A stretch of DNA of 64,000 nucleotides, from IMG/VR virus record IMGVR_UViG_2772190778_000001; one strand, given 5' to 3'. The stretch is from a virus. Its lineage: Duplodnaviria > Caudoviricetes. Shown one piece after another: positions 1-40,834 of this stretch. The translations under genes and the position numbers were made by a program. Within the stretch, counting starts at the first letter, position 1. Every line of letters begins with the position of its first letter. The notes under the pieces are model-generated. The model was not told where the DNA came from, did no database searches, and worked only from the letters and a program-made list of their open reading frames with translations.

Positions 1-1110
1 TCACTCCACATACCGAAACCCCTGCACGGCGCGAAAGTGCCCGCCGTAGCCGGTCCCGGCGGGCTTGAGACCTTTGCGTGCCCGGGCGGCGGCGAGGGTC
101 TTCATGCTGCGCTCCTTCGATTCGGCGTAGAGGATGGCCGAGACCTGCGCCCAGAGGGGATCGCGGCGGAGCGCCGCGGCGAGGCCGGGGTGCGAGGTAT
201 GAAAGAGCATCGGCATCGGTTTGTCATAACGGTTCACGCCGCGCCGCCAGAGGGCGCAGACCTCGTTGAGAAAGCGCAGGCCCAGCCCTGCGCCCTGCCA
301 CTCGGGCATCACGACAAGGCGACAGGCGCGACCCTCGACCAGCCCCGGCCGGGTGGAGACGGCGAGATGCGCCACGGGCGCGCCGTCGACGAAGCCCACG
401 TAGTAATTCGCCGCGATCATGCGGGGCAGCTTCAGGTAGTGATGCGGCTCAAAGGCGGGCCAGAAGGAGCCGTCTGTCTGGTGAATGTCCATGGCAATGC
501 GCGGTGCCCGTCGAAGACGCCTCCAGCGGAACTCGGCCCGGCGAGTGTCGATCACCCAATCGGGCTGTAGCCAGGACACCACGTCCTCGTGACAGGTGAC
601 GGCGACGAACTGGCCTTTGCCGCGCCGCCATGCCTTGGCAAAGGCGGCCGCCCCGATCTGGGCCACGCGCCGGTCGATGGTCGAGGTGAACTCGTCGAGA
701 ATGGCAAAGCTCGGCCGCTCGGCCAGAATGCGCGCGAGCTCAGCCCGGAATTGCTCGCCGGTCGAGAGGTGGCGGAATGGCCGCAGCCAGCTCGGCACCG
801 TGCCAAGGCCCACGGCCGAGAGGGCCGCCGCCACGGCATCGAACGCGCCCTCCGGGTCAATTGCGTCGATCAGCGCGCCCTCGGGCCACGGGCGTGGATC
901 AAGCTGCGCGCCAAAGGCCGCGCGGGCGAGGGAGGATTTGCCGCTGCCCGAGGGGCCGACGATGAGGCCGATCTGCCACGGACGGGCCAAGAGATCGGCC
1001 TCGACCTCGAGGCGGAAATCCGCGTCGCCCTCGACGTTGAAGAGGCTGGAGACTCGGGCCGCGCGATAGGTGTCCGGGATGGGGCTGGCGTGGTGAATGG
1101 CGAGCTTCAT
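1..1110 (-). CDS. ABC-ATPase / GNAT acyltransferase fusion at the Mu mom position
   Basis: Walker A GPSGSGKS, signature-like LSTGE, Walker B ILDE, H-loop VTCH; C-terminal GNAT motif RLVVMPEWQGAGLG; ATG at 1110 overlaps upstream stop (ATGA). Confidence 0.85.
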   Translation of the reverse strand: MKLAIHHASPIPDTYRAARVSSLFNVEGDADFRLEVEADLLARPWQIGLIVGPSGSGKSSLARAAFGAQLDPRPWPEGALIDAIDPEGAFDAVAAALSAVGLGTVPSWLRPFRHLSTGEQFRAELARILAERPSFAILDEFTSTIDRRVAQIGAAAFAKAWRRGKGQFVAVTCHEDVVSWLQPDWVIDTRRAEFRWRRLRRAPRIAMDIHQTDGSFWPAFEPHHYLKLPRMIAANYYVGFVDGAPVAHLAVSTRPGLVEGRACRLVVMPEWQGAGLGLRFLNEVCALWRRGVNRYDKPMPMLFHTSHPGLAAALRRDPLWAQVSAILYAESKERSMKTLAAARARKGLKPAGTGYGGHFRAVQGFRYVE

Positions 1111-1289
1111 GTCACCACCACGCGGCATTTGAAGCCTTGGCGGCGCAGGCGGCCGAAGGCGTCCACTTGGGCCGCCTCGTCCTCGAGGAGGACAATGACG
1201 CCATATTGCCGCCGGTAGCGGGTGCCCTTGGGCAGGCCCGGCGCACCGGGCGGCAAGTCAGGTTTCGGGAGTGTGGTCGATCTGGCCAA
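1107..1289 (-). CDS. 60-aa protein between com and ABC-GNAT
   Basis: SD AAGGAG + TTG start; nearly identical copy at 43432-43614; coupled to the downstream gene. Confidence 0.75.
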   Translation of the reverse strand: MARSTTLPKPDLPPGAPGLPKGTRYRRQYGVIVLLEDEAAQVDAFGRLRRQGFKCRVVVT

Positions 1290-1461
1290 GTTTGGCTCCT
1301 TCTCTCTGCGCAGCGCGCTTTGGGGGAAGGGCTCTTGGCCTCAGGATATTCATCGCCCGGCAGCGCGGGCACTTGATCGAGACGCCGGATATTTGCGCGC
1401 CTCTCTCATATTTAAATAGCAAACGGCTGCAGGCGCAGCAACGCAGTTCTAGACCTTCCAA
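1258..1461 (-). CDS. com: Com-like zinc-finger translational regulator
   Basis: RCCACSRLLFK...IKCPRCRAMN (CxxC...CxxC); probable TTG start at 1461 (in P2 the upstream ATG is followed by an in-frame stop). Confidence 0.85.
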   Translation of the reverse strand: MEGLELRCCACSRLLFKYERGAQISGVSIKCPRCRAMNILRPRALPPKRAAQREGAKLGQIDHTPET

Positions 1462-1609
1462 ATCGAATCGCCTCATAAAGTCGCCGCCCCTTTGGGGCAG
1501 GGAGCGGCCATGAGGTTATGTCTGGTCGGCGGGGTTTCTGTTTGGCGACTGTGCCCCGCGTCCCCGGGCGTATCTTCCTGAACGCTCGGGGCCTCCTGTG
1601 GTTTTGGGA

Positions 1610-1972
1610 TCAGAACCGCGCGGCGAGGCCTGCGACGCCCTCTGGCACCTCCGGCCAGAGCGGATCGTCGCCCGTCTCGATAGCGCGACGGCACTCGGCC
1701 TGCATCGCGGCCACCCATGCTTTCCAGCCCTGCGCCAATTCCAGATCGCCCTCGATCAGACCGGACGCGGCCAGAGCATCCGCGCGGGGGCTGCCGCCCA
1801 AGACGGCCGCCATAAACACGATCCCGGCTTGGGCGATGTTCATCTGCGTGGTCTCTGAGCCGACAAACAAGATACGCGACCGGCAGTCGGTCTTGATCAA
1901 GGCGGCACGAGCAAAGTTGTCTGCTAGGGTCTTGGCCTCGGCGGTGACGGCTTGGGCGAAATCAATCTGCAT
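1610..1972 (-). CDS. Putative tail fibre assembly/chaperone protein
   Basis: Position after tail fibre; coupled to upstream ORF. Confidence 0.55.
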   Translation of the reverse strand: MQIDFAQAVTAEAKTLADNFARAALIKTDCRSRILFVGSETTQMNIAQAGIVFMAAVLGGSPRADALAASGLIEGDLELAQGWKAWVAAMQAECRRAIETGDDPLWPEVPEGVAGLAARF

Positions 1973-2279
1973 CGGGGGTCTCCAACTCATAGGGCGGCAG
2001 GGTCACGGGGCCGTTGCCCGTAAGGGTGAGGGGCGCGGGAAAGAGCGTTTCTTGCGGCGCGTTGGCCCCGTGCGGCAGCACGAGCGTGAGGCGCAGCGTG
2101 CCGCCCACACGCTCGACCGGGCCTGCGAACCAATCGCTTGCGATGGCCTCGCGCGGCAGGGTCGCGCCCTCGGGCAGCGGCGTGAAATCGAGCACCTCGC
2201 CATTAAGCGTGAGCGCATCGCCGGTGCGGCTTAGCGTGAGGGGCGTGTCGCGGCGGGTGGGGGAAAGGGTGATCTGCAT
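1962..2279 (-). CDS. Small tail-associated protein (fibre assembly type)
   Basis: MQITLSPTRRD...LNGEVLDF N-terminus typical of genes following phage tail fibres; SD AAGGAG. Confidence 0.6.
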   Translation of the reverse strand: MQITLSPTRRDTPLTLSRTGDALTLNGEVLDFTPLPEGATLPREAIASDWFAGPVERVGGTLRLTLVLPHGANAPQETLFPAPLTLTGNGPVTLPPYELETPDAD

Positions 2280-2290
2280 GGGTGTCTCCT

Positions 2291-3403
2291 TTAGAACCAG
2301 CGGCCGGTGGCAATCAGATCAACAGTGCGATTGGCGGCAGCTTGCGTGGTGACGGCGGTCACGGCCCAAGGGCCGGATGTAGCATTTGGAGCACTGTGCG
2401 ACGCGGCTCCAAAGGCCGAAGCGGCGTTTGGCATCGCGACCAGTTTTGGCGCGCTGGCCGAAAGGAATTCCGCCGGAAACGTCCAGTTCTGCCCGCCGCT
2501 CCGAAACCCGCCCAAATAGGCGACGTTGATCGCGAGGTTGACCGTCAACGTATGCCAGCAAATCTGTGTACCATCTGCAAAGCGCACATAATCGCCATTG
2601 GCATTGCTGCCCCGCTCGATCACGGCCCCTGTAGGGACGCCGCCGGATTGGCTCACGGTGCCGACGAGGTTGGCCCTTGTCGTGATCTCAGTCCAGGCGG
2701 ACCAGACTGGGCCAACGGTATCCGTAAGGTGCCTCACAAAAATCTGGCTGCTGACCCCAAAGGCGATTTGCAAGAAGCCGCTGGCCCCCGAAGAGGCCAA
2801 GCGTGTCATGTGCAGGACGACGCCTGCTGAACTCGGTGCGCCGGTGGTCGTGCTAGCGTAGCGATGAAAGCCGGTTGTGGTCACGGTATCCAGAGATGCT
2901 GGGGACAAGATAGAAGAGGTTTCCCCAAGGCCGTGCGCCCGGTTCAGCAGCACCCGTCCCGCTGTGGCATCGGAAGGGGAGGATTGTTCAATCGTTGTCC
3001 GTGCCAAGAGCGCGCGTGCAGCTGGGGTCAGATCTGCCAGCGCCAACGTGCCCAAGCCGGTGAAGTAAGGCATTTTGTTCGCTGCCCCTTCCAAACCGGC
3101 AAGGCTCGTGAGGTTGCCAGAGCCGAGCGCTCCGACAATCTGGTTGAGCGCCACGAGCGACCGCTCGCCCGCGTCGATCAGGCGGATCGAGTAGTTTGCC
3201 GATGCCTGTCCACCGCCGGGCCAAGCGCGGGCAAGGGTGATCGAGGTGGCGCTGTTGACCGAGGCAATCTCAACCGTGAGGCCCGCTGCGCGGAAATCGT
3301 CACCGGGCAGGATGCCGCCCGCGATCCAGTTGGTGCCCACGCCTGTGACGGTCGTGCTGCCGTTGCTGACCGAGATGGTCCCCGTGGTATAGGTCGTCGT
3401 CAT
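2291..3403 (-). CDS. Side tail fibre / receptor-binding protein
   Basis: N-terminal YTTGTISVSNGSTTVTGVGT, MPYFTG repeat, C-terminal GSNANGDYVRFADGTQICW fibre-tip motif. Confidence 0.8.
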   Translation of the reverse strand: MTTTYTTGTISVSNGSTTVTGVGTNWIAGGILPGDDFRAAGLTVEIASVNSATSITLARAWPGGGQASANYSIRLIDAGERSLVALNQIVGALGSGNLTSLAGLEGAANKMPYFTGLGTLALADLTPAARALLARTTIEQSSPSDATAGRVLLNRAHGLGETSSILSPASLDTVTTTGFHRYASTTTGAPSSAGVVLHMTRLASSGASGFLQIAFGVSSQIFVRHLTDTVGPVWSAWTEITTRANLVGTVSQSGGVPTGAVIERGSNANGDYVRFADGTQICWHTLTVNLAINVAYLGGFRSGGQNWTFPAEFLSASAPKLVAMPNAASAFGAASHSAPNATSGPWAVTAVTTQAAANRTVDLIATGRWF

Positions 3404-3432
3404 CCCTCACTCCTTTGTTGATCGGGCCGCTG

Positions 3433-6400
3433 TCATGTGAATGCCGCCGTCGCTTTTTCTTCGGCGAACATCTGCGTTCCTTGCAAAACGTAGACGCCCT
3501 TCAGGCCACCGGGATGGGACCAGTAGCGCACCTGCAATGTGTAAGTCGTGGAGGACGCCCCCGGCGTCGTGCGGTTCTTGAACATCAAGCCATCGAGAAG
3601 CTGCCTGCGCCCTACCTCGATCCGCTGCCGATAGATGAGGGTATCCGCCATCTGGACCCCGTTCCTCAGGACCCGGTATTCGACGTCCGCCCCAGCATCA
3701 TCTGGGCTGAGGGACACCGCCTGAAACCGGACGTTCAGGATCATGTGACGCTCGCTGGGCAAGTTCCGATGCGCCGCAGTCAGCGTCAGAACGTCCTCAA
3801 AGTCGGTGGTGCTGGAGATCCCGAATGGGTCTTGCAGGGTCACGGCGCTGATCGCCCCAATCGCGTCGAGTGCAATCTTGTCGGTTAGGATTGACCCGCC
3901 AAGGATCAGATCCCCGTCCAAAACGAAATCGCCCGCCACCTGTACATTGCCGTCGAGACGCAGATAGTCGCCGGACCAGCGACCGGTGATTGTCGCCCCC
4001 TCCACGGTCCCATCACTGACGCTGACCGCCTCAAAGACGTTCTGCTCGTTCAGGCGCATGACAAAGCCCGCCGCAATCCCGTCTGCAGTGGCTTCGGCAA
4101 AGGCCGTGGCCTCGGCCAGTGCGGTCAGATCGCCGTAATTGGCCGAGACGGTCTGATTGACGGCCGCAACCGCCTCCGCCTCCGTTACCTTGGCGGCCTC
4201 GACCGTGGAGACCCGCGCGAGCAGACCGGTCTCGGGGGTATTGAGAGCGCTCTCGACGGTGGTGGTGCGCGAGGCGAGGGAGGTTAGAGCGCCATCGATC
4301 TCGGAGACTTCAGCGGTTAGCAGGTCCAGCGCGTTTGCCGTCGCTAGCCCCGGAATGGCCGCCTGCACCAAGGTGACTGCCGCTGAGACGATCTGGATTT
4401 GATCCTCGGTCAGGTCGATCCGGGAATTGAGGTCCTGGGCCGCCTGCGCCACGACCTCGCGCGTTGCAATCCCGTCCAGTATTGCGCGGGCGGCTCCTTC
4501 GACGGACTGTGCGCCTGTGAGCTTGAGCCGGGAGCGCACCGCGCGGGTGGAATTGGATTGCACCCGTTCGCCGTCCTCGAGCTGTTCGGCGCGCACAGTC
4601 AGTGTGTCCACGGCATCGCCGACCAGATTGAGGCCGGTTTCGAGGTCGGCAATCTCGCCGGTCAGCGCCGTGGTCGCGTCGGTCAGCGTGGCGACGCCTG
4701 CTTCGGTCTCGGTGACGCGGGCGTTGGTCTCGGTCAGCGCCTCCGCAGTGCCCGTGGCAAGCCCCTCCAAATCGGTCAGTTCGGAACCGAGCGCCGTGAT
4801 ATCCTCGGCCAGCGCCAGCCCCTGCGCGATGCGCGCCGCGCGCTCTGCGGTCAAATCGGCGCTTGAGGCTCCGGGGGCCGGGCGGCCAATCGCCAACCAG
4901 TCAATCTCGACGCTTGCGGGCAGGTCGAGGCGGACCCGGTCCACGGTGCCAGACCACGCCAGATCGACAGTGAGGAGCGCCACATCCTCCGCCCATTCCG
5001 GCTCGGCCACGTCGACGCGGCGCGCGGCGTCAAACGCCTGCCCCGAGGCGGCCCACCAGAATTGCGCGGCCCATGCTGGAACGCCACTGCGACGAAGCCG
5101 GGCGCGCAGCTGTCGATAGGCCTGCGTGGGGATCGCAAGACCAGCTGGCGAGATCGCGCCGCTGCCCGATGCGAGCGCAAGCCAACCGTCGGAGGTGACG
5201 CTTGGGGCGGTGGTGACGCCGGTCCACCCTTCGGCGTCTGCATCCCAATACCAGACTGCGGCGGCGTCGAACTGTGTGACCGTGCCCACGGAGAGGAGCG
5301 CAATCTGATTGGCCAGCGCGTCATCGCCGTCGATCCGCGCTTGGTCGACGGTCTGGGCAAGGGCCGCAATATCGCCGGTCGTGGTCTGGAGCGTCTGGAC
5401 CGACTGCGCGATCTGCACCTGCCCGTCGGCCAGCACGGTGAGCGCTGCCGAGGCTTCGGCCCGTGCGCCCTCGATCTCCGCCACCAGTGCGGTGCGCACC
5501 TCGTCGCGCGCCAGAAAGTCCCGCGCGGCGGCCTCGAGCGCCAGTTGTGCAGAGGATTTAATGCGGTCCCGCGCGGCGCGAACGCCGCCTGCGACGGAAA
5601 GCACGTCCCCGGCGCGGGCCTGCGCCTCTGTCAGCAGCGCGCCGTCGAGCCGCGTCACATGCGGCACCTCCGGCACATCGTCCACGCCAATGGGGGCGAT
5701 CACCTGCTCGATGCGGCCGAAAAGATCGGCGACGCTCGGCGGAATTCCATCCTCGCCAAGGTGTGCTTGGGTCAGGGCAAAGGCCGCGTCGAACTGGTCG
5801 CGCAGGGCATCGCTGAGGTCGGCCGCCGCCACCCGCACATCATCCGTGGTCACCCAAATCCAGGCCGACCAGATGCCCCGGCGATTGTCGGAGAGCGCCT
5901 TGGCGCGGACGCGCAGGTTGGTGAGTGGCGGCACAGGCTGGATGGTCGCAAGGCCCCGCTCGACATCGAGCACGGTGCCGCTCCAGACCTCTTCTTCGGT
6001 CTCGCGCTTTTGGCATTCGATGGCGATCCCCTTGATGGTATCGGCGATACCCGAGGCGTCCCAGAAGACGTCGACGGCGGCATGGGCGCGGGTGCCTTCT
6101 GCGTTCGTGACAGTGCGCGCGTCGGCATCAAAGAAGGGCAGGCCTGCGTCGTTGGGCACCGGGCGGGGCAGGATCGAGCTGCGGTCGGGGATCTCGAGCG
6201 CGGCGTCGATCTCGAAATCCTCCGGATCGCGTTCGCGCAGCGAGGCCACGACGGTCAGGCGGTGCAGATCGAGCACGATCTCGGTGACTTCAAAGAGCTT
6301 GTTCGCGTAGTCGTTCCACGCGCTGGTCACCGAGACGGTGTTGAGCGGGCGCAGTCCGGCATAATCGGGCGGCAGCGGCCAAGCGTGCCGCCGCCAGCGC

Positions 6401-7713
6401 CGGTGATCTTCGAGCGCGGATTTGGCCAGCTGTCCCCCCTGCGCGGCGTTGAAGACGGCGGGCAGGTCCATCTCGAAGTTACGCACAATGCCGTCTTCGG
6501 CTTGCCATGCGGGGTTGCTGATCTGCTCAAGCGGCACGCCGTTCCAGAGCGCGCCGGGCGAGACGTATTTGGCGGTGACGCGGTTGAAGATCTCGAGCAG
6601 TTCGGGAAACGGGTCTTTGGTGGCGGCATCCGTCACCAGAAGGTCGTCGTCGGTAATGCTGGCCACAGGGATATCGGGGGCGTCGACCTGAATGTAGAAG
6701 AAGCCGCCGAACTCGGCGATCTGCCCGTTGCAGGCGGCGAGCAGCTCGTCGATCACCTCGCCGGGCGTGTCCTCGGCGAATTTGATCTCATAGCCTGCCT
6801 CGTATTTCCGGCGGTCGCCAAGGTCGACGTCGCAGGCGTTCATGCCTGGCACCCAGTTCCAGCCGGGCAGGTCTTCGGCCTCGGCCTCGCCGCCCCAGAC
6901 CGAGCCGTCATAAAGGCCAATGCCGCGAAGGATGTTGTAGATCTGGACCACCGGGTTGCGCGTGGGCTCCCAGGTGGTGGGATCGTCCCAGCGATGCGGC
7001 CCCGTGCCCCCGGCGGTGCTGTCGCGGCGCAGGTCGTAATAGGGCACGCCGTTTTCCTCAAAGCGTTGCTCCGGCGCGCCATTGGGCCAGACCTTTGAAC
7101 TCACCTCCATTGTAAGGATGGCGTAGGGAATGCCCCGCCCGATATGGGCCTCCGTCCAGGGCGTCTCGGGGTCCTCGGCATAGTTCGCAACCAGCGTCGG
7201 ATCGGCGGCGGTCTGGGTGCCGTCATAGACCTTGATCCATGCAAAATCTCGGCCGAGGTCGCGCTTGGCGATGAGCGGGAAGCCGTAGTCGGGATGCGCC
7301 TCTTCACCCAGTTCGGAATAGACGCCGTCCACCATCACGCGGCTGAAGGCGGCACCGGGCAGGCCGCCCAACTCGATCACGGTCTGGTAATACTTGTTAT
7401 TGGGGCCGTGGCTGTTGTGATAGATCAGATGCCCCTTGGTGGCGTAAAAGCCCGTGATCGTCGTTTCGCTTTCCAACTCGCCGCGTGTCGTCGCCGTGAC
7501 TTGAAGACCGAAGGCCGTGTTGCGCCCACGCCGCGCGCGGCGTTGTTGCAGGATCGATAGGCCCACACCGGCAAAGAGGCGCAGGGCAAAAAGGGCCACA
7601 GCCTTGACCGTGATCCCGGCAAAGACAGCCGCCACGGCGGCGGCCACTGGCCCGGCCGAGGCAGGGGCGGCGGAGGCGAGTACGAGTGCCATGACCCATG
7701 CGAGCAGTCTCAT
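3433..7713 (-). CDS. Central tail fibre / host-specificity protein (gpJ-like), 1426 aa
   Basis: Size, position after NlpC-like gene, N-terminal hub similar to 45226-49164, long coiled-coil region. Confidence 0.85.
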   Translation of the reverse strand: MRLLAWVMALVLASAAPASAGPVAAAVAAVFAGITVKAVALFALRLFAGVGLSILQQRRARRGRNTAFGLQVTATTRGELESETTITGFYATKGHLIYHNSHGPNNKYYQTVIELGGLPGAAFSRVMVDGVYSELGEEAHPDYGFPLIAKRDLGRDFAWIKVYDGTQTAADPTLVANYAEDPETPWTEAHIGRGIPYAILTMEVSSKVWPNGAPEQRFEENGVPYYDLRRDSTAGGTGPHRWDDPTTWEPTRNPVVQIYNILRGIGLYDGSVWGGEAEAEDLPGWNWVPGMNACDVDLGDRRKYEAGYEIKFAEDTPGEVIDELLAACNGQIAEFGGFFYIQVDAPDIPVASITDDDLLVTDAATKDPFPELLEIFNRVTAKYVSPGALWNGVPLEQISNPAWQAEDGIVRNFEMDLPAVFNAAQGGQLAKSALEDHRRWRRHAWPLPPDYAGLRPLNTVSVTSAWNDYANKLFEVTEIVLDLHRLTVVASLRERDPEDFEIDAALEIPDRSSILPRPVPNDAGLPFFDADARTVTNAEGTRAHAAVDVFWDASGIADTIKGIAIECQKRETEEEVWSGTVLDVERGLATIQPVPPLTNLRVRAKALSDNRRGIWSAWIWVTTDDVRVAAADLSDALRDQFDAAFALTQAHLGEDGIPPSVADLFGRIEQVIAPIGVDDVPEVPHVTRLDGALLTEAQARAGDVLSVAGGVRAARDRIKSSAQLALEAAARDFLARDEVRTALVAEIEGARAEASAALTVLADGQVQIAQSVQTLQTTTGDIAALAQTVDQARIDGDDALANQIALLSVGTVTQFDAAAVWYWDADAEGWTGVTTAPSVTSDGWLALASGSGAISPAGLAIPTQAYRQLRARLRRSGVPAWAAQFWWAASGQAFDAARRVDVAEPEWAEDVALLTVDLAWSGTVDRVRLDLPASVEIDWLAIGRPAPGASSADLTAERAARIAQGLALAEDITALGSELTDLEGLATGTAEALTETNARVTETEAGVATLTDATTALTGEIADLETGLNLVGDAVDTLTVRAEQLEDGERVQSNSTRAVRSRLKLTGAQSVEGAARAILDGIATREVVAQAAQDLNSRIDLTEDQIQIVSAAVTLVQAAIPGLATANALDLLTAEVSEIDGALTSLASRTTTVESALNTPETGLLARVSTVEAAKVTEAEAVAAVNQTVSANYGDLTALAEATAFAEATADGIAAGFVMRLNEQNVFEAVSVSDGTVEGATITGRWSGDYLRLDGNVQVAGDFVLDGDLILGGSILTDKIALDAIGAISAVTLQDPFGISSTTDFEDVLTLTAAHRNLPSERHMILNVRFQAVSLSPDDAGADVEYRVLRNGVQMADTLIYRQRIEVGRRQLLDGLMFKNRTTPGASSTTYTLQVRYWSHPGGLKGVYVLQGTQMFAEEKATAAFT

Positions 7714-8111
7714 GGCCGGTAAATCCTGACGGCGCGGTTGAGTGGCACCGCGCCCAAGCCCCGCAGGGGACGCAGCACATGGATATGCCCCCCGCCGACG
7801 ATGCCCATGGCCTCGTCACCCGCCTCAATTAGCACCACGACGTCGCCCGCCTGTGCCTGCATCCAGCCCGCATCCGGCAACAGGATCGAGGCCAGAACCT
7901 CGGCAGGGGAGGCAAACCCGTCCGCCAAGAGAAGCGCGCGGCCTTCTTCTAAGGTGCGATATTGCCCGCGCCATTGCGCCGCCGGATCGGTGCCGGTCAG
8001 TTCTTCAATCCAGTCGGCTGCGAACATGGCGCAGTCGGAAAGGCTCGGGCGGAAAGGCTCTGCGCGCCGGGCATCGAGGAATTTCCGAAGGAGGCGTTCG
8101 CGTGTCATCAT
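7710..8111 (-). CDS. NlpC/P60-like tail-tip protein (gpK-like)
   Basis: SDCAMFAADW Cys motif with downstream His; synteny. Confidence 0.7.
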   Translation of the reverse strand: MMTRERLLRKFLDARRAEPFRPSLSDCAMFAADWIEELTGTDPAAQWRGQYRTLEEGRALLLADGFASPAEVLASILLPDAGWMQAQAGDVVVLIEAGDEAMGIVGGGHIHVLRPLRGLGAVPLNRAVRIYRP

Positions 8112-8764
8112 TTGCGGTCGCTCGGGTCGTTTTCGCGTATGAAGGGGGGCGGCTGCTCGGTCACGACCGTCTCTTGACCCCATGGGATCGGGCGGTCGGC
8201 AATGCTGGCGGCATGTTCGCGGAAGCGGTCGGACGGGTCGCGCAGCCGCTGTGCCGCATCGGATTTGAAGAGCGGCTGGCGGAAGGTGAGTGGGCGCGTA
8301 GCCGAGGAAATCACCAGCTCTGTGCGAGACTGATCACCGAGTTTGGCCAAGGTCTCGGGTGCCGTCTCGAGCCGTCCTTTGATGACGCGCTGCGGGGTCC
8401 CGAGTGGCGCGCCGGTGTAGATATCGAGCGGCTGCGACCAGACGCGCACCCGGGCCTGTGCGGCCTGATAAACCTGCAACGCCAGCTTGGCGGCATCGGT
8501 CATGGGCGGCAGGATCACGCGGTGGCGGCGCACCTCGAGGCCGATGCCTGCGCGGATTGGCGGCACCTCGATCACATTGCCCGCACCCAGAAAGAGATGG
8601 GTTTCGCCGTCGACGGTAAAGGTCTGGTGATCGTCCCCGGTCCAGAGGCCCATGGGCACGATCTCGCCCGTGACCCGGTCGCGCGGCTCGATCAGAACGA
8701 GGATATGGGCATCGGTGCCGCTGCGCTCGGCCAGCTGGTCCATTTGGGCAAGATCAAAGCTCAT
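8108..8764 (-). CDS. Tail-tip hub protein (gpL-like position)
   Basis: Synteny; distant similarity to P2 49541-50242. Confidence 0.6.
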   Translation of the reverse strand: MSFDLAQMDQLAERSGTDAHILVLIEPRDRVTGEIVPMGLWTGDDHQTFTVDGETHLFLGAGNVIEVPPIRAGIGLEVRRHRVILPPMTDAAKLALQVYQAAQARVRVWSQPLDIYTGAPLGTPQRVIKGRLETAPETLAKLGDQSRTELVISSATRPLTFRQPLFKSDAAQRLRDPSDRFREHAASIADRPIPWGQETVVTEQPPPFIRENDPSDRK

Positions 8765-9435
8765 ACTCCGCCCCCCAGCGTTTGCTGCCAGCTGAAGCTG
8801 CCGCCTTCGGTGCGCCGTGAGCGGCCCGGCCCCGGTTTGAAACTGAGCAGCTTTGCGCGCAGTTGCGGACGCTCAAGGATCACCGAGGCCCCGACCACCA
8901 CGCCGGGGCGGATAAAGGGCGAGACCTCGAACCGGGCTGTGGCCCCGGTGCTATCCGCCGTGACTGTGGCGTTCATGATCCTGTGGACGGCGTAGCGGAC
9001 GGGGCTCGCCAGATATTGAAAACCGATCTTCTGGCCCCGGCGCAGCGTGAAGTTCGGCGGCAGGCCCTGAAGGCTCAGTTCCCGATTGCCGGGGACAAGG
9101 CTCTTGATCGTGACCGGCTGTGCGGCCCAGTTGATGCCCCCCGGATAGGCAGGGTCTTGCGGCGCAAACTGGCGGCGGTCGTAGATCATGAAGGAAGCGC
9201 CCGGCTCGAGTAGGCTTTCGATCAGCGTATCTTGGGCGGCGATCACATCAGGCTCGGATTTGCCCAACACCACTTCGCCTTGCCAGAGCCGCGTGCCGCG
9301 CCGATGCACAATGACCTCGCCCCCGGCGGTGACCGAATTGGTGCTTTCGCCGCTGAGGAAAAACGTGGCCTCCTCGATGCCCAGAAGGTCAAAGAAGGCC
9401 GAGACCGGAAGGGGCCAATCCTGTACCGCCATCAT
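8761..9435 (-). CDS. Distal tail protein (Dit/gpM-like position)
   Basis: Directly after tape measure; distant similarity to P2 50244-50912. Confidence 0.6.
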   Translation of the reverse strand: MMAVQDWPLPVSAFFDLLGIEEATFFLSGESTNSVTAGGEVIVHRRGTRLWQGEVVLGKSEPDVIAAQDTLIESLLEPGASFMIYDRRQFAPQDPAYPGGINWAAQPVTIKSLVPGNRELSLQGLPPNFTLRRGQKIGFQYLASPVRYAVHRIMNATVTADSTGATARFEVSPFIRPGVVVGASVILERPQLRAKLLSFKPGPGRSRRTEGGSFSWQQTLGGGV

Positions 9436-12236
9436 CCTCTCCCTAATGGATCGCGCCGGATCGCCTCGACCCGGCCCGGCAGTTGTTGCGCCGAGAAATC
9501 GTCAACCACCTCGATGGCCACGTCGCGCGCGCGCTCTTCGGCGACGACGCGGAAAAGCTCCGACGGCTCGATGCGCAGGCGCGTGACGCTATTGCTCTGC
9601 AGGCCTGCGCCGCCCGCCGTCCCGACTGCACCCCCCGCCTGCGCGGGCAGCGGCAGGCCGCCCCCGGCAAAGCCCGGGATGATCGCGCCTGCGTTCATGG
9701 CTTCGAGCAGCGCGCGATTGCGGGCTGTGGCCTCGGCCGTCATGATGAACTCCCCGGCGCTGACCAGCGCGGGGATCTTGTCGCCCCGGCCTGTGCCTGC
9801 GCCCAAGAGGAGGCCGGGGCGGGTGACGAGAGGATCGCCGCCAGCGGCGAAGCCGGGCAACCCGCCGTTTGCGAAGGACAGAAGCGAGCCGCCGGAGAAG
9901 AGACCAAAGAGATCGCCAAGCGCGCCGCCGCTGCCGCCCCCGCCGAAGATCCCGCCCAGAAGGCCGCTGCCGCCAAAGAGCCCGCCCAAAGGACCTGACC
10001 CGAGGATGAGCGCCTCCTTGGCCGCGCGCACGATCATGTCGCCGATGCCTTTCCAGACGTCCCGCAGGCTTTCGGCCTCGAGGAGCACGTCATCTACGGC
10101 GCGGCTGAATTCCTCCTTGCGCTCCAAGGCGACGCGCTCGTTTTCATGGGCCTCGACAAGGGCCTCTATCTCTTCGCGCTGTTTCGGTGTTGCGGCGGTG
10201 AGGCTCTCGCGTAGGCGGATCATCTCGCGTTGCACCGGGTCGCTTTCACGCAAGGCCTCGATCTCGCGCCGCTTGCTCTCGATCAGCCGGTCGAGCGCCT
10301 GTTGTTCGCGCAAGGTGGCATTGGTCGACGCGCCCCGCGCGCCGCTGGTGGACCGAGTGGGCCGGGCCAGTTCGTTGAGCCGGGCGGTCTCGCGCGCCAG
10401 TTCGACCACAGCGTCCCGGCGCGCGTTGAGGGCGTCGACCGTTGGCAGATCACCGCTGGCCTCACCTCTGATGACGGCGGTTTCCCGGTCGAACCGCGCG
10501 CCCGCCAGTGCCCCCGCACGGCCCACCGGATCGTCGCGGAACTCCGCCCGGATACGGGCGTTCTCCAGTCCGACTTCGCCTTGGGACTGCAAGTCGAACA
10601 TTGCGTCGACGGCTCCGCGCACTTCGGCTGAGAGCCGTGCTGCCTCGTCGGCCGCCGCGCGGATACTGCCCGACATGTCGCTCGTGGCGATCTCGAATGC
10701 AGCTTGAGCCGCCTCGCGCATGGCGTCTTTCGTCTCCACGCTCGCGTCTGAGGCATCGGCCTCCGCAAGTGCGGCGTCGAGGGCGAACTGAGCGCGCAGG
10801 CGTGTCACGGCCGCGCTGTCCGCGCCATGCTGTGCGATGGCCAATGCAATCGCATTCTGCTCGGTCATCGTTGAGAGCATGGCCTGCGCCGCCGCCTCGG
10901 CCTTGAGCTGCTCGCCGGTGGCTTTGGTCACCAAGTCGAGGAAGGTCAGCATTTCCTCGATCTGGCGGTTCCGCGCGGGGTCTTGGCTTTGAAGCTGGGC
11001 GACTTCGGCCAGACGTAGACGCATCTGAGCCAACGTATCGAGCCGGGCCTTTTCAGCCTCCGAAACCTCGCCCGAGGCCTTTGCGGCGGCGCTGTAGCTT
11101 TCGATCAGCGCGTCGACGGCGGCAGCTTGTTCTTCAACGGTGCCTTTGGCGGCCTCCTCTAGGGCGGCAAAATCGTTGAGAACGTCCTGGACAAGTTGAC
11201 GGCTCCCGGCGCGCATCCGCCCAAAGAGGCCGCTGAGGTCAAGCTCGGACGCCAAGGTGGAAAGTGCCTGCCCTTCGGCCACGTCGAGCCCGCCGTCGAC
11301 AGATTGCGGCAGGAGCTCGCGGTTGCGGTTGACGCGCCCAAAGTCGACGCCGGTCTCGCCCAGAAAGCTTCCAATATTGTCGCGCGTTTCACGGGCGACG
11401 GCACGCTTTTCAGCCTCGACGATCCGGTCAAGCAGATCTTGGGCGCGCTCGACGAAGCCTTCACCAAAGCGCTCGGCCAGTTCGAGCCGGGTGCCGGAGG
11501 CCTCGGCGATCTTGTCCTTCAGGCTGTCGATCCGGGTCTCCAGCGCCTCGACCGTATCTGCGAATGTCTCGCCCTCTTCAGAGGCGGACATGAACCAATT
11601 GACCACGGTCGCCGTCGCCGCCAATGCGGCGATGGTGATCAGGTTGATCGGGCTCAGCATCGACAGGACCGCGCCCCCCAAGGCCCGGAACGCGCCCGCC
11701 GCTCCGAGCGGACCGATGACTTGGGTGATCTGGGTGCCCTGTTGAATGGCCAGCGTCAGCGGGTTTTGCCCCGCCGCCAGCATGACGAACACGTCATTGC
11801 CTTGTGCGACGAGGTTGCCCATCGAGCCTGCGGCGAGGCGATTGGCACCTGCCAATTGCTGGGCCGCCATCGTGCTGCGGGCAAAATCCGCGTTCAGGCT
11901 GTCTAGGGCGGCGTCATATTGCCGCGAGGTAAGCGCGCCGACCCTTTGAGCTGCATTTAGTTGTTCGAGCGCCGTTTCGTACCGTTTACTCGCCGCGAAC
12001 AGTGGGTCGAACTGCGCGCGCAGCCGATCCTGTTCTTGGGCCAGCACATTCATGCTCTCTTCGGCGGATTTTGTCGTGCGCGCCACGATGTCCATGCCGC
12101 GCCCGATACCGACACCTTCAACTCCAAGCGCCCGAAGATCCCTTGCCGCGCCGAGCGACGCCACGGCCAAGCTCCGCATCTGCGCCTTGGCCTGTTCGGT
12201 ATCCATCAGGATTTCGCCCTGGACACGCAACGTCAT
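9432..12236 (-). CDS. Tail tape measure protein, 934 aa
   Basis: Ala-rich helical protein, GQNPLTLAIQQGTQI motif, Gly-rich C-terminus, follows chaperones. Confidence 0.9.
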   Translation of the reverse strand: MTLRVQGEILMDTEQAKAQMRSLAVASLGAARDLRALGVEGVGIGRGMDIVARTTKSAEESMNVLAQEQDRLRAQFDPLFAASKRYETALEQLNAAQRVGALTSRQYDAALDSLNADFARSTMAAQQLAGANRLAAGSMGNLVAQGNDVFVMLAAGQNPLTLAIQQGTQITQVIGPLGAAGAFRALGGAVLSMLSPINLITIAALAATATVVNWFMSASEEGETFADTVEALETRIDSLKDKIAEASGTRLELAERFGEGFVERAQDLLDRIVEAEKRAVARETRDNIGSFLGETGVDFGRVNRNRELLPQSVDGGLDVAEGQALSTLASELDLSGLFGRMRAGSRQLVQDVLNDFAALEEAAKGTVEEQAAAVDALIESYSAAAKASGEVSEAEKARLDTLAQMRLRLAEVAQLQSQDPARNRQIEEMLTFLDLVTKATGEQLKAEAAAQAMLSTMTEQNAIALAIAQHGADSAAVTRLRAQFALDAALAEADASDASVETKDAMREAAQAAFEIATSDMSGSIRAAADEAARLSAEVRGAVDAMFDLQSQGEVGLENARIRAEFRDDPVGRAGALAGARFDRETAVIRGEASGDLPTVDALNARRDAVVELARETARLNELARPTRSTSGARGASTNATLREQQALDRLIESKRREIEALRESDPVQREMIRLRESLTAATPKQREEIEALVEAHENERVALERKEEFSRAVDDVLLEAESLRDVWKGIGDMIVRAAKEALILGSGPLGGLFGGSGLLGGIFGGGGSGGALGDLFGLFSGGSLLSFANGGLPGFAAGGDPLVTRPGLLLGAGTGRGDKIPALVSAGEFIMTAEATARNRALLEAMNAGAIIPGFAGGGLPLPAQAGGAVGTAGGAGLQSNSVTRLRIEPSELFRVVAEERARDVAIEVVDDFSAQQLPGRVEAIRRDPLGRG

Positions 12237-32357: not shown

Positions 32358-34481
32358 TTACTCTTGGGCACCGAAGCGGCGCTCCATGCGCAGCTGGGTG
32401 CGGTAGTCGGAACTCTGTTGGTAGTCGGCCAGCCAATCGGCCTGCGCCTGCGTCAGCGTCTCGCCCTCCGCCTGCGCGGTCTCGAGGGCGCGGGCACGCA
32501 GAAAAAGGGCCTTGGGATCGTCTTCATCGACCTCAACGGGGCGGGCGCGATGCTCGGCGAGGCGCGTCACGCGGGCCTCAAGCGCTGCTTCGCGCTCTTT
32601 CTCCTCGGCGCTCTGCGCGCGCCGCCGTTTGGGGGCGGCCTTGTGCGGCGTCACAAGCTGATGAACTTGCGCCTCGGGCAGGGGGTCGTCTGCCGCCAGC
32701 CCCGAGGCTGCGCGCACCCGGGCGGCCACCTCGGCCGCCGTCAACTCGCGCGCGGCCTTGGCCTCATCGCGCTGCGCACGCATCCATGTCTTGCGCTTTC
32801 GGTTGTGATCGCGTGCGGCCTCAACGTCGCGGAACTTGGCGTCCTTGAGACATTTGGCATGGCCGAGGTACCGGCCCGCCAGATCATAAACCTCGAGACC
32901 GGCTGTCAAATCATCCGCGTCGAACCGCGCAACCACCTTCTCGCCTGCGATCCGGTACATCCACTCTGACCAGTATTCCGTGTCGTAGAGCTTCAGAGCG
33001 CCGTTGCTGGTCTTGGCCCGCACACCCTCGGCGCGCAGGAGCCAGAGACGCAGTTGTTCGTCCGTCGCGCGCTTGATCGTGGCGCGCGCATAGCCCTCGT
33101 TGAACACCTCATTAAACGACCGTCCCATGGCCACTTCGCTGCGCCGCCCGGGGCGGGCGTTGTGATGCGCGAGTTCGTCCTCTAAGACGAGGCGGAACTC
33201 CTCGAGCGGGATGGCGCGGGTGCCGTAATCCTCGGGCTTGGCGTCCGGTTTGTTGCCGGTATAGGCCCCGTCAAAGGCGGGATGCTTGGCCACCCGGTCG
33301 CAGAGGTCGCGAAACGCGCGCTCGATGGGCTTGGATTGCCCCGAATAGGGTGTGGCCCAATGTATTTCGACGCCCAAGAGCGGAAGGAGGCCGGGAATAT
33401 CCTCGTCGGTGATCTTGAAGCGGAACCGGGTCGGCGTGCCGCCTGTCATCGCCTTGGCCGCGAACTCCCGGCCGTTGTCGATCAGAACCGACTGTGGGAT
33501 GCCATAGGTCCGGATCAGGTCGCCGGTGACCAGCTGCACCGTGTGGCTGTTCGCCGTCGGCGACAGGCGCCAAGCCAAGAGCTTGCCGGAATAGACGTCC
33601 GACCAGACCATCATCTGCGGTCGCACGGGCTTGTCGTAGCCCGGCCACGACACAAAGACGTCGAACTTGTGATAGTCGCCCTGGACGCATTCGAGCGGGG
33701 CCATGAACGCCTTGCTGCGAACCTGCGCAGGATAAAGGCGGCGCAGCGCTTCCTCGCCCTTGCGCATGAAAATCTCCGTGGGTACCGAGACGCTGGCCTT
33801 GAGCCAACGGCGCACCTGATGGAGAGGCGGCACGGCGCTGTTGCGCCGCTCTGAGGTCCAGACGCGCACGGCACGGTCATAGCAACTGGTGAGAGAGGGT
33901 TGCGACAGGCGCAGCCAGTCGCTGCGCACAAGTGACAGAAACGCAGGGTCTATGTCATCCCGCCGGGCGGGGGAGCGCCGCAGCGCGCGCCCGTCGATCA
34001 GGTAAGCCAGCCGGTCGGCCCGGGCGACGCCCTCGACCTGCCCGAGGTAATTCCAGAGGGATTTGTCAGACCGCTCCAGCTTGCGCGCGACCTCGCGCAC
34101 GGCCGCCGAGCGGGTCAGCCCGGCCCCTTCCAGCAATTCGACCTCGGCAATAGCCCCAAGCCGCGCCTCGGCCTCGGCGCGCGCCTTGTCGCCCGCCGCC
34201 GCATAGCGCTCCCATGCCTCGCCAGTCCCGGGCTTATCCGCCGGAGCCGCGACCAGACCGGCGCTGAGCCGCATCCGGGCGCGCAGAGGCAAGATGCTCC
34301 AGTGATACTCGACGCCGCCGCCGACCCCCTTACGCCGCCGGACCTTTCCGGGGTGCCGTGCCCAGCCCTCGCGCACCGCCAGATCGTTGACCTTGCGCTT
34401 TGTGCCGGGCAGGTCGGGCAATCCGGCCTCGGCCAGCTCGGCGGCAGACCACCACTCTTGCGCAGGGGCGGGTCCAGTCAT
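32358..34481 (-). CDS. DDE transposase (MuA-like), 707 aa
   Basis: N-terminal Mu HTH (WWSAAEL...LPG), DYHKFD / DNGREF / KPIERAF catalytic motifs. Confidence 0.95.
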   Translation of the reverse strand: MTGPAPAQEWWSAAELAEAGLPDLPGTKRKVNDLAVREGWARHPGKVRRRKGVGGGVEYHWSILPLRARMRLSAGLVAAPADKPGTGEAWERYAAAGDKARAEAEARLGAIAEVELLEGAGLTRSAAVREVARKLERSDKSLWNYLGQVEGVARADRLAYLIDGRALRRSPARRDDIDPAFLSLVRSDWLRLSQPSLTSCYDRAVRVWTSERRNSAVPPLHQVRRWLKASVSVPTEIFMRKGEEALRRLYPAQVRSKAFMAPLECVQGDYHKFDVFVSWPGYDKPVRPQMMVWSDVYSGKLLAWRLSPTANSHTVQLVTGDLIRTYGIPQSVLIDNGREFAAKAMTGGTPTRFRFKITDEDIPGLLPLLGVEIHWATPYSGQSKPIERAFRDLCDRVAKHPAFDGAYTGNKPDAKPEDYGTRAIPLEEFRLVLEDELAHHNARPGRRSEVAMGRSFNEVFNEGYARATIKRATDEQLRLWLLRAEGVRAKTSNGALKLYDTEYWSEWMYRIAGEKVVARFDADDLTAGLEVYDLAGRYLGHAKCLKDAKFRDVEAARDHNRKRKTWMRAQRDEAKAARELTAAEVAARVRAASGLAADDPLPEAQVHQLVTPHKAAPKRRRAQSAEEKEREAALEARVTRLAEHRARPVEVDEDDPKALFLRARALETAQAEGETLTQAQADWLADYQQSSDYRTQLRMERRFGAQE

Positions 34482-35332
34482 GCCGCGTCCCCTTGGTCAA
34501 TCTCGCCGAACAGCGCCGCAACCTCTGCGCCGCGCTCCTCGAGAAACGCCATGCGCTCCCGCTTGCCCGCACGGTCCCATGCGTCCATGAGGCGCGCGAG
34601 GGTGGCGTCTTTTGGGCTGGCCGGGGCCGGTGCCTCACCGCGCGCGGCGCGGTACGCCTCGCGTGCGGCTTTGACCGTTTTTGCCCGCCCGGCTGATAGT
34701 TCTTCTACAACGAAACCTCGTTCCTCGGCCTCGCCCATTTTGCCGATATCAATCAGGTCCATCACCTCGACCCGCTTTGGAGCGGCACGAAGGCGCTCTA
34801 TCTCTTTGCGCCGTAGGAGACTGCCTGCGCGCACGAAGTTGCGAACGTGGCGCTCGCTGAGGCCGAGATTTTCCGCAACGCTTTCGGCAAAGGATGCGAC
34901 GGAAATCATTTCCGCCGTATCCCATCGCTTGGATGCAAGGCCCGCCCCGGTCGCCGCTTTAGCCTCCGGGTGCAGCCGTTCATAGGCCGACTTGCGTTCA
35001 GCCAAAAACAACGCCAGATCGACCGGGATAAGGGGCTGACTGGCAAGGTTGCCGTCGATCTCCATCATTCTGGCTTCGGCGTCGTTGCAGCGAAAGAGAT
35101 CAACGGGGACCACCGTCTCGCCAAGTTCTTGCATCGCGGTCAAACGGTGCAGTCCCTCGACTAGATAATCGCCGTCCTTCTTACGCCGCACCCATATTTT
35201 GCCACGAAAACCGCTCTGGCGGATCGACGCCTTCAGGCTCTCGACATGCTTGCGCGACACATTCCGCAACCGGTCTTCGACCTTGATCGCTTCAATCGGC
35301 AGTTCGGTGATTGTGGAAAGGTGCTCAATCAT
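34478..35332 (-). CDS. ParB/Srx-like N-terminal domain plus HTH protein
   Basis: LKASIRQSG...LVEGLHRLTA...EIDGNL; coupled to transposase. Confidence 0.8.
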   Translation of the reverse strand: MIEHLSTITELPIEAIKVEDRLRNVSRKHVESLKASIRQSGFRGKIWVRRKKDGDYLVEGLHRLTAMQELGETVVPVDLFRCNDAEARMMEIDGNLASQPLIPVDLALFLAERKSAYERLHPEAKAATGAGLASKRWDTAEMISVASFAESVAENLGLSERHVRNFVRAGSLLRRKEIERLRAAPKRVEVMDLIDIGKMGEAEERGFVVEELSAGRAKTVKAAREAYRAARGEAPAPASPKDATLARLMDAWDRAGKRERMAFLEERGAEVAALFGEIDQGDAA

Positions 35333-37439: not shown

Positions 37440-38096
37440 ATGGACTTTGGATCTCTAGTGCTTGCACGGCTCGAGGAGCTGGGAGAAAATGTGAATAGCT
37501 TTGAGGCCAAGTGCGGCTGGCCTCAAGGCTACCTCCGGGCTGTTGTCAGAAACGACGAGAAGCGAACAAGGCCCAATCTGGAGCGGGCTAAGGAGATCGC
37601 CGAGGCGCTCGACCTTGACTTCTACATTGGGCCAAAGCGGGAGACCGGAACGGTCTACACCACCCAGATCGACCACGAAGATTTCGCGGCGATCCCGCGC
37701 GTCGATGCGCGGCTTGCGGCAGGGGCCGGGGCTTTAAACGGAGAAGTCAGCCTTCAGGGCGCACTTGCGTTTCGCCAGGACTGGCTGCGCGAGCGGGGCA
37801 TCTCCCCGGCACAAGCTTGCCTTCTTACCGTTGCCGGTGACAGCATGTCGCCCACTCTGCACGACGGCGACCTCGTCATGATCGACGAGCGCCGCACCAC
37901 AGTTCGAAATCGCCACGTCTACGCCTTCGTCGACGTCGACGGCAGCGCCCGCGTCAAGCGCGTCGAATTGGTACCCGACCAGCTGATCATCCTGACATCT
38001 GACAATGCCGCCCACCCGACCGAAACACGAACCGGCCCGGACATGAACCGCCTGCGCATCCTCGGCGAGATTGTCTGGTCGGCGCATGCCTGGTAG
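37440..38096 (+). CDS. CI-like repressor (HTH + S24 peptidase)
   Basis: N-terminal HTH, LAAGAG, VAGDSMSPTLHDGD (Ser), VKRV (Lys). Confidence 0.92.
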   Translation: MDFGSLVLARLEELGENVNSFEAKCGWPQGYLRAVVRNDEKRTRPNLERAKEIAEALDLDFYIGPKRETGTVYTTQIDHEDFAAIPRVDARLAAGAGALNGEVSLQGALAFRQDWLRERGISPAQACLLTVAGDSMSPTLHDGDLVMIDERRTTVRNRHVYAFVDVDGSARVKRVELVPDQLIILTSDNAAHPTETRTGPDMNRLRILGEIVWSAHAW

Positions 38097-38150
38097 GCCA
38101 ATCCCTTTAGGCACCGGCCTCGCACGAAGATCCTGAATAGGAGGTTTACG

Positions 38151-38633
38151 ATGAAAGCTCCCACTATGCCTGCCGCGCTCATCGCTACTTTTACATTGGC
38201 CTGCTTTGGCTGCGGCCCTTTTTTTAGTGTCGCCACGCCAGCTCTAGCCCAGAGCGCCGCGAGCCAACAAGAAAGTTACAGTGACATCCAGAAGCGGCTG
38301 AAGACCCAACGCCAAGAGCACCAGATGAACGAGCAACGAAGGCTCTTTAAAGAAAGACAGGATCGATTTTGTAAAGAGGTCGACCTAAGGGCGAGCCTTT
38401 CCATTTCTGCTCGGCAGTTCGGAAAGATGACCGTTGAGCAGGCGTTGGAGGAGTACGTCGGCCCAAGCTACGCTTATAACAAAGGGCAGCGCAGCGTTCA
38501 TGAGGCTATCATTTGGGACGCGTTTAGTGTTCCCGTGGCTTATCAGAACGGCTCGGTTCCTTCGCATGTTTTGAGCGACTTTACCGACAAGTGGGTTGGG
38601 TTATGCGAGCGCGGCGAGCTTGGCTGGCCCTGA
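38151..38633 (+). CDS. Exported protein downstream of repressor
   Basis: SD AGGAGG; signal peptide ending ALA; paired Cys (FC...KW..LC). Confidence 0.7.
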   Translation: MKAPTMPAALIATFTLACFGCGPFFSVATPALAQSAASQQESYSDIQKRLKTQRQEHQMNEQRRLFKERQDRFCKEVDLRASLSISARQFGKMTVEQALEEYVGPSYAYNKGQRSVHEAIIWDAFSVPVAYQNGSVPSHVLSDFTDKWVGLCERGELGWP

Positions 38634-38648
38634 TACCACGCCAAAAAA

Positions 38649-40699: not shown

Positions 40700-40834
40700 C
40701 GAGAACCATTAAAAAAATCGAAGTCAACCGTGACCGCGTCTAAAGAAATTCCTTGAGGTATCCTAATTCGCCAACGTTCGACGGCCGAACCTCATCTTTT
40801 CAACGCCCCTTTAACACCCCGCTAAACACCTCCC

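Follow-up and report, generated by a model that had tools for sequence, protein, structure and literature searches.

A com operon with an ABC-ATPase/GNAT fusion and a small conserved partner at the ends of two Mu-like prophages: a candidate system for acylation of DNA bases

In bacteriophage Mu, the Com protein is understood to open an mRNA structure that blocks translation of mom. In a different setting, the TmcA/NAT10 enzymes, an ATPase fused to a GNAT domain makes N4-acetylcytidine in RNA, with TmcA acting on tRNA. Here we analyze a 64,000-nt stretch of the viral record IMGVR_UViG_2772190778_000001 (Caudoviricetes), the whole of which we call the window, in which com, a 60-amino-acid (60-aa) open reading frame (ORF), and the gene for a 369-aa fusion of an ABC ATPase to a GNAT domain form the last operon of each of two Mu-like prophages. 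Our favored reading, to which we assign a probability of roughly 0.55, is that this operon specifies late, Com-gated, ATP-dependent acylation of DNA bases.

Mom carries out a glycyl-tRNA-dependent modification of adenine at N6 and needs a helix-turn-helix-like insertion, at about residues 175 to 209, for activity (PMC13219725). Thymine dioxygenases of phages, which act on DNA, need a ParB-like partner protein that is devoid of the DNA-binding domain (bioRxiv 10.1101/2025.08.14.668559; PNAS 2026, PMC13229309). The pairing of an ABC ATPase with a GNAT domain was predicted to be a DNA nucleobase acylation system by Iyer, Zhang, Burroughs and Aravind (NAR 2013, as cited in PMC7824862, 2021); as far as that citation goes, it agrees with an earlier reading of the window's sequence (the original prediction), which had pointed to a computational ABC-GNAT prediction and no characterized product. 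The family and its predicted role are, through the same citation, already in print (Iyer 2013, via PMC7824862), and what is new here is the recognition of the 60-aa ORF as a ParB-tail module of constant occurrence, a negative test of kinship with Mom, a census of the com slot, and the recognition of the window's operon as the minimal form of the cassette.

The com operon and its ABC-GNAT enzyme

Both prophages are transposable and of the Mu type, each with a MuA-like transposase (phrog_310; E value, 8e-160) and a MuB-like protein, and their head and tail genes are of the siphovirus type. On the minus strand, com, the 60-aa ORF, and the 369-aa gene overlap one another and make up the 3'-terminal trio that closes each prophage, with all three ORFs lying where the original prediction had placed them (Table 1). 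The homology between the two prophages in this region (positions 1 to 1565, corresponding to 42326 to 43887; 92.6% identity) ends 5' of com, and the prophages then have nothing in common until position 9508. The enzymes, as had been noticed, differ by only a few residues although they adjoin unrelated tail modules (4 of 369 residues and 61 bases, with homology ceasing at 1565/43887). Because the ratio of nonsynonymous to synonymous substitution rates (dN/dS) is 0.035 for the enzyme and 0.075 for the 60-aa ORF, both copies of the module are under strong purifying selection.

Table 1. Features of the two com operons, in window positions
Feature	Position	Strand	Remarks
ABC-ATPase/GNAT fusion, copy 1	1-1110	minus	369 aa; stop 1-3, ATG 1108-1110
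Last 10 codons and stop of enzyme gene	1-33		identical to copy 2 (42325-42358) and to a gene-less "solo" copy (40834-40867)
60-aa ORF, copy 1	1107-1289	minus	phrog_28816 match; home-made hidden Markov model (HMM) E value, 4e-17
com, copy 1	1258-1476	minus	72-aa zinc ribbon, 4 Cys; PF10122, 32.8 bits
Shine-Dalgarno (SD)/start mRNA hairpin, copy 1	1284-1340	minus	minimum free energy (MFE), -25.3 kcal/mol; z, -2.9; candidate Com-released translation block
Noncoding block 5' of com, copy 1	1477-1565	minus	common to both prophages; candidate late promoter
ABC-ATPase/GNAT fusion, copy 2	42326-43435	minus	4 aa and 61 base differences from copy 1
60-aa ORF, copy 2	43432-43614	minus	2 aa differences from copy 1; HMM E value, 3e-17
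com, copy 2	43583-43786	minus	67 aa, GTG start; PF10122, 27.5 bits
SD/start hairpin, copy 2	43610-43664	minus	MFE, -22.7 kcal/mol; z, -2.6
Shared noncoding block 5' of com, copy 2	43787-43887	minus	homology between the prophages

Over its full length the enzyme matches phrog_11143, a phage protein family of unassigned function (E value, 4.7e-131; residues 8 to 374 against positions 2 to 349 of a 357-position profile), a similarity far beyond chance. A 375-aa reading, which would start 6 codons earlier, is disfavored by alignments to homologues, which begin at residue 7. The ABC_tran profile (PF00005) is matched at 39.7 bits (cutoff, 25), and among 97 diverse homologues the Walker A motif (G52 to S59), the signature (L115 to R122), the Walker B aspartate and adjoining glutamate (D139-E140), and H174 are invariant or nearly so, with S54, G55, G57, K58, L115, S116, G118, R122, D139, E140, and H174 invariant in all 97. 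No conserved Q-loop glutamine is present between Walker A and the signature in these homologues, and only 56 residues separate the two motifs in the enzyme. The "full ABC ATPase motif set" of the original prediction is accurate for Walker A, the signature, Walker B, and the H-loop but slightly generous with respect to the Q-loop. Foldseek, run with an AlphaFold2 model of the whole enzyme, aligned the N-terminal half with ABC nucleotide-binding domains (E value, about 1e-8) and returned only the ATPase domains of transporters. The enzyme lacks the marks of an ABC transporter subunit, a conserved Q-loop and a partner permease: no membrane-protein gene adjoins the enzyme gene in either copy, and the neighbors (com, tail-fiber genes, and a RelA/SpoT-like gene past the prophage end) accord with the earlier remark that no permease lies nearby.

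The same model resolves two domains (predicted local distance difference test score [pLDDT], 92; predicted template modeling score [pTM], 0.87), of which the second supports the claim of a C-terminal GNAT domain: the Pfam match is weak (E value, 1.7e-3), but the domain folded alone is modeled well (pLDDT, 89.7), and solved GNATs align with it at Z scores of 13 to 15. The modeled domain has the standard order of GNAT elements, together with one long helix (134 to 149) and a poorly modeled loop. The acyl-CoA motif Q272-x-x-G275-x-G277 is invariant or nearly so among the 97 homologues, as is G273 within it. To judge from this QxxGxG motif, the domain is of the ordinary acyl-CoA type, and the enzyme most likely uses acyl-CoA, where Mom uses glycyl-tRNA.

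Kinship with Mom does not extend beyond the superfamily fold. The Mom profile PF25680 gave no match in the enzyme at an E value of ≤1 (Mu Mom itself scores 2e-75), and hhalign of the enzyme-family profile against Mu Mom returned a probability of 0.2%; because both tests are negative, the enzyme shares with Mom only the superfamily fold. The helix-turn-helix-like insertion of the Mom type was not seen in the GNAT-domain model, as viewed without direct superposition on Mom. Nor are Mom, Fem-type, or TmcA structures among the 50 best structural matches of the domain, an absence from a list that does not amount to an exclusion.

The com slot, the partner module, and the candidate target

Indirect evidence of what the enzyme acts upon comes from the company that com keeps. 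The original prediction had called for a survey of how often the trio occupies the mom slot, and we ran it from the com side, on 80 viral loci with a com homologue (loci, not independent lineages, ranked by likeness to the Com of the window). The gene after com encodes a D12-class N6-adenine methyltransferase at 20 loci, an N6/N4 methyltransferase at 17, a C5-cytosine methyltransferase at 11, and Mom at 6; the small ORF and ABC-GNAT gene follow com at 11 of the 80 (10 of these being close relatives of the window phage), 5 loci have some other gene, and at the remaining 10 there is none or it is cut off by the contig end. DNA methyltransferases of all classes thus follow com at 48 of the 80 loci. 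Known DNA-base modifiers occupy 24 of the 30 clusters that remain when the census is grouped at 70% identity; in nearly all cases, then, the enzyme that Com switches on is one that modifies DNA. In this way the window lends the idea of a DNA target independent support from context, because the slot otherwise holds DNA methyltransferases and Mom.

Both Com proteins score above the cutoff of 22.9 bits for Zn_ribbon_Com (PF10122; scores in Table 1), that of copy 1 is 31% identical to Mu Com (BLASTP E value, 2e-8), and in the alignment of Com proteins C13, C16, and C36 are invariant and C39 nearly so. The start of mom lies 50 nt inside com in Mu; in the window, a TTG located 6 nt past AAGGAG opens the 60-aa ORF 32 nt inside com, in the 3' end of that gene, and the stop codon of this ORF overlaps the enzyme start as ATGA. 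With the prophage ending within about 50 nt of the enzyme stop codon, the assignment of the trio to the mom slot is sound: this is a right end with com, and the gene presumably under its control begins inside the 3' end of com, as it does in Mu.

In the hairpin of copy 1, the GAAGGAG SD sequence is paired and so is the TTG at which the 60-aa ORF begins; the hairpin is kept in 5 relatives with 2 compensatory pairs, which is thin evidence. In Pseudomonas phage Komp_PAO1_1, a different sequence buries the ribosome-binding site or start in a fold modestly better than those of shuffled sequences (z, -1.5); in phiE255, occlusion of the ribosome-binding site or start, again by a different sequence, is seen as well, in a fold no better than those of shuffles (z, -0.3). 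By analogy with Mu com-mom, Com may act on the hairpin in the window. The block upstream of com that the two prophages share contains no sigma-70-like site, and we can only infer a role for positions 1477 to 1565 as a late promoter. The published genomes of Komp_PAO1_1 (L002:3683-3847) and phiE255 (L001:3677-3841) each carry an unannotated com homologue in the gap 5' of the small ORF.

The 60-aa ORF has no Pfam match, and a query of the ESM Atlas with it returned nothing useful. It consists of a proline-rich tail followed by a module of about 35 residues, predicted to fold as strand-helix-strand, with the consensus xYxxQxGVIVxCxDExxQ...LxxxGxxxKVVxV. The same module is found in small ORFs 5' of the enzyme gene in phiE255, Komp_PAO1_1, and Porphyromonas phages, it forms the C terminus of ParB N-domain proteins encoded 5' of the enzyme in Gordonia and Streptococcus phages, and there are natural fusions of ParB N-domain, module, ABC domain, and GNAT domain in single proteins of 558 to 623 aa. 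Whether alone, after a ParB N-domain, or fused, the module lies directly 5' of the enzyme in all 77 viral loci that have upstream sequence. The 60-aa ORF thus encodes a conserved partner of the enzyme that is homologous to the C-terminal module of ParB-like proteins. The "adaptor" of the original prediction gains from this homology and from the constant adjacency or fusion; docking of the module on the enzyme is itself surmised, because of that adjacency and those fusions. The window encodes, in addition, a 284-aa ParB N-domain protein (34478-35332, minus strand) just 5' of the MuA-like transposase gene; because it has no small C-terminal module, it gives no sign of partnership with the enzyme.

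The composition of the cassette was surveyed with home-made HMMs at 80 enzyme-encoding viral loci, which come from one viral collection and are not independent lineages. Com is present and the ParB N-domain absent at 16 loci, about 40 have a ParB N-domain, and the rest have the module alone; a PurN/Fmt-type formyltransferase (PF00551) is encoded 3' of the enzyme at most, not all, of the 80. At the com-type loci, a formyltransferase is present in 7 and absent from 4, and in the other 5 no more than about 130 nt separate the stop codon from the end of the contig, as would be expected where a Mu-type genome ends. Across the 80 loci, the conserved neighbors are the small module, the ParB N-domain, com, and the formyltransferase. 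The home-made HMMs detected neither a formyltransferase nor a second small module anywhere in the window, where the enzyme gene is followed by the RelA/SpoT-like gene outside the prophage (copy 1) or by a low-GC gene (copy 2). Because the ParB N-domain and the formyltransferase are both absent here, the small module and the enzyme are the invariant core of the cassette and, on the favored reading, its working core; the window's copy is a minimal cassette under com.

The enzyme family is large: at least 5,700 homologues with an E value of ≤1e-10 are present among the matches listed, and representatives of 50%-identity clusters number 4,492 at ≤1e-3 and 503 at ≤1e-30. Identity to the window's enzyme is 61% in phiE255 (Proteobacteria), 50% in Porphyromonas phages (Bacteroidota), 48% in Gordonia phages (Actinobacteria), and about 35% in phages of Firmicutes (Streptococcus, Lactococcus, and Oenococcus), a degree of conservation that is unusual for a phage protein. 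In phages of Gram-positive and actinobacterial hosts, the cassette is situated immediately before the terminase gene, and it occurs in lytic phages too. In the host family, none of 150 other genera gave a match at 1e-30, which is weak evidence, as only 13 candidates were scored per genome. Among longer fused homologues, only intein-bearing and duplicated-ATPase forms were found; some homologues (P0249 and P0271) have an intein (Hint plus LAGLIDADG) inside the ABC domain. The annotation of Streptococcus phage Javan141 (L027:3492-4555) and of several of its streptococcal relatives divides the enzyme gene into two ORFs, one for each domain. Because tblastn likewise finds two pieces, the gene could have a frameshift, be subject to a switch, or be truly split.

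DNA is, on this contextual evidence, the most probable target of the enzyme, because the com census, the ParB linkage, the position before the terminase gene, and the published prediction agree. Several observations weigh against acylation of DNA. The literature searched (including from the angles of COG2401, the formyltransferase, and ParB) contains no bench work on an ABC-GNAT enzyme or its product, and a paper on Leptospira phages lists the cassette genes only. The ParB N-domain, the part of the cassette that most directly suggests DNA, is the part missing from the window. The closest solved folds of the GNAT domain are generic small-molecule and protein N-acetyltransferases (e.g., RimI and Naa50), and no nucleic-acid GNAT is among its 50 best structural matches; the ABC domain resembles the nucleotide-binding domains of transporters, ABCE, and ABCF, unlike the DNA-handling Rad50/SMC/MutS class. 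Finally, 5 of the 30 post-com clusters are of unknown function, and the loci of the com census were chosen in order of likeness to the window Com.

The alternative that survives best is a protein acetyltransferase that acts late on a host or phage protein, such as RNA polymerase or a defense, packaging, or virion protein. In such an enzyme, the ABC domain would clamp the substrate at the cost of ATP, and the small module would be a subunit for specificity or dimerization. The canonical acyl-CoA motif fits such an activity, as do the nearest solved folds, which are protein N-terminal acetyltransferases (RimI at a Z score of 14.6, followed by Naa50, NatA, and Ard1), and a phage GNAT that modifies a host protein is known in Rac of phiKMV, as quoted in PMC7824862. 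However, in the census hardly anything but DNA-base modifiers occupies the com slot, and the module forms the tail of proteins of the ParB type, which in phages accompany DNA-acting enzymes. The 48 to 50% identity of the enzyme across phages of Proteobacteria, Bacteroidota, and Actinobacteria favors a universal substrate over a host-specific protein, and we regard a protein target as unlikely.

Improbable, in our estimation, is an RNA substrate, whereby the enzyme would act on tRNA or rRNA in the manner of TmcA/NAT10, biasing translation or escaping tRNA-directed defenses. TmcA provides the precedent of an ATPase-GNAT enzyme with an RNA substrate, and ABCE and ABCF proteins, which associate with ribosomes and tRNA, are among the sequence neighbors of the ABC domain. 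The formyltransferase of the other phages would, on this account, act on aminoacyl-tRNA like Fmt, and Fmt-type formyltransferases do act on charged tRNA; the window's copy, however, has no formyltransferase. Mom itself uses Gly-tRNA (PMC13219725), which also speaks for a role of RNA. Set against these points, the Pfam domains of TmcA/NAT10 have no match in the enzyme at an E value of ≤1, and Com control and the ParB linkage point to DNA.

A GNAT toxin of the TacT/AtaT type is a stand-alone protein (about 170 aa), and the gene upstream of it encodes an antitoxin that binds DNA; we rejected such a pair here, the GNAT being fused to an ABC ATPase and the upstream ORF being a ParB-like tail that has no Pfam match. 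The broader idea of a lysogenic-conversion or defense/toxin module (a GNAT toxin with a small antitoxin, or an ABC-ATPase abortive-infection protein) has in its favor the small upstream ORF that overlaps the GNAT gene as in TacT/AtaT-type pairs, the position as the last genes of the prophage, with low-GC cargo and a RelA/SpoT-like gene close by, and weak PADLOC matches to ABC-type defense proteins (mad3 at 4.7e-15, over residues 116 to 194 only), but it is highly improbable given that those matches cover only the generic ABC core, that the small ORF is a ParB-like tail fused to the enzyme in many phages and no antitoxin-type DNA binder, that lytic phages, too, have the cassette, adjacent to their terminase gene, and that Com gating implies late lytic expression.

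Acylation of DNA bases would proceed as follows. A late transcript would begin upstream of com, and the zinc-ribbon Com would open the hairpin that masks the ribosome-binding site and TTG of the 60-aa ORF, whose translation would be coupled to that of the enzyme gene through the ATGA overlap visible in the sequence. The 35-residue module of the small protein would then dock on the enzyme, as a docking or dimerization piece; the ABC domains would dimerize on ATP and clamp or distort DNA; and the GNAT domain would move an acyl (probably acetyl) group from acyl-CoA to an exocyclic base amine, presumably before packaging. ABC ATPases work by ATP-driven dimerization, not adenylation, and there is no basis for the earlier proposal that the ATPase activates the substrate. 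The term "hypermodification" also claimed too much: plain transfer of an acyl (probably acetyl) group is simplest, the formyltransferase of most other cassettes being absent here.

In its most specific form, which we put forward tentatively, the system would be a two-protein, Com-gated machine in which the module and the ABC-GNAT enzyme acylate base amines in duplex DNA with ATP and acyl-CoA. If so, the small module would be the handle that recruits ParB-type CTP clamps in most other phages, and the window's copy would be the minimal active unit. To our knowledge, no phage DNA modification by such an ATP- and acyl-CoA-dependent machine has been shown at the bench. With about 50% identity kept from one bacterial phylum to another, the family is among the most widespread and best-conserved phage enzyme families without a known product. 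Should it write an acyl mark on DNA, the known phage DNA modifications would gain a new class, with relevance to restriction evasion and to the sequencing-based detection of modified bases. For a bench test, the window offers the simplest, two-gene form, under a known type of translational switch.

Prophage ends, cargo, and tail regions

The end of the enzyme gene is unusual in its own right. An exact 34-mer occurs 3 times, and once more with 3 mismatches (G000:C1:3693445-3693478, at about position 83883 in window coordinates), with all copies in the same orientation; the 34-nt end is identical while the rest of the enzyme gene has a synonymous divergence (dS) of 0.22. Because the 34-nt conservation is perfect, a cis element would seem to overlap the gene end. 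It is probably a prophage-end element, and the pattern suggests a site for transposase binding or another cis function. Each prophage has an attR-like direct repeat of about 75 to 95 nt, some 41 kb away, past the repressor and low-GC cargo. Phages with MuA and MuB are expected to have inverted ends, but at the left end of the prophage we found no copy of the right end in inverted orientation, and a direct, uninverted end repeat in a phage of this kind is unexplained.

The low-GC cargo (45 to 55% GC) differs between the prophages and lies between an S24-type repressor gene (37440-38096) and the solo repeat. In prophage 1 it extends over positions 38100 to 40700 and includes the gene for a 477-aa protein with DUF4041 and T5orf172 (GIY-YIG-like) domains (39266-40699); in prophage 2 it lies outside the window (L190:11372-19510), and a protein of 1067 aa is one of several that it encodes. 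We consider the cargo genes of both prophages candidates for a defense or moron role. Directly beside the right end of prophage 1 is the gene for a 424-aa RelA/SpoT-domain protein (L004:31-1305, minus strand), and the 1.4 kb between the prophages holds a 307-aa gene of 44% GC with no Pfam match (41061-41984, minus strand).

Between the distal tail and tail-fiber regions of the two prophages (1566-9507 and 43888-50999), similarity is undetectable, whereas the sequences that flank them, which comprise the com module at one boundary and the genes for the tape measure and head at the opposite one, are 82 to 95% identical. The difference is a clean mosaic swap of the host-range module.

Comparison with known systems

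The enzyme shares its fold and ATP-binding motifs with the nucleotide-binding domains of ABC transporters (MalK, CbiO, SufC, and others), from which it differs in having no permease partner, no conserved Q-loop glutamine, and a fused GNAT domain. The ParB-dependent thymine dioxygenases of phages likewise rely on a ParB partner, and most ABC-GNAT cassettes include a ParB N-domain with the short C-terminal module; the catalytic enzyme is a different one, however, and the window retains only the C-terminal module of the partner.

TmcA, by the principle on which it works, is the closest working analogue and not a relative. In both systems a P-loop ATPase would be coupled to an acetyl-CoA-dependent GNAT, and the acetyl group would go to a base amine of a structured nucleic acid, although the ATPase is of the ABC type here and helicase-like in TmcA/NAT10, and the target in the window is presumed to be DNA.

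The system predicted by Iyer and colleagues (2013) belongs to the same family (phrog_11143, over the full length), has the same two-domain build, is phage borne, and likewise has no characterized product. Relative to it, the window's copy is distinguished by com control at a Mu-like right end and by the presence of the 35-residue module only, with neither the ParB N-domain nor the formyltransferase.

With Mu com-mom, the window's module has in common the slot, the overlap of com with the start of the controlled gene, the start-hiding hairpin, the GNAT-superfamily fold, and the presumed purpose, protection of DNA from restriction. The enzyme differs from Mom in its canonical acyl-CoA motif, its ABC ATPase, and its obligatory small partner, whereas Mom uses a charged tRNA. 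By this comparison, if DNA bases are acylated, the enzyme would be a functional replacement of mom.

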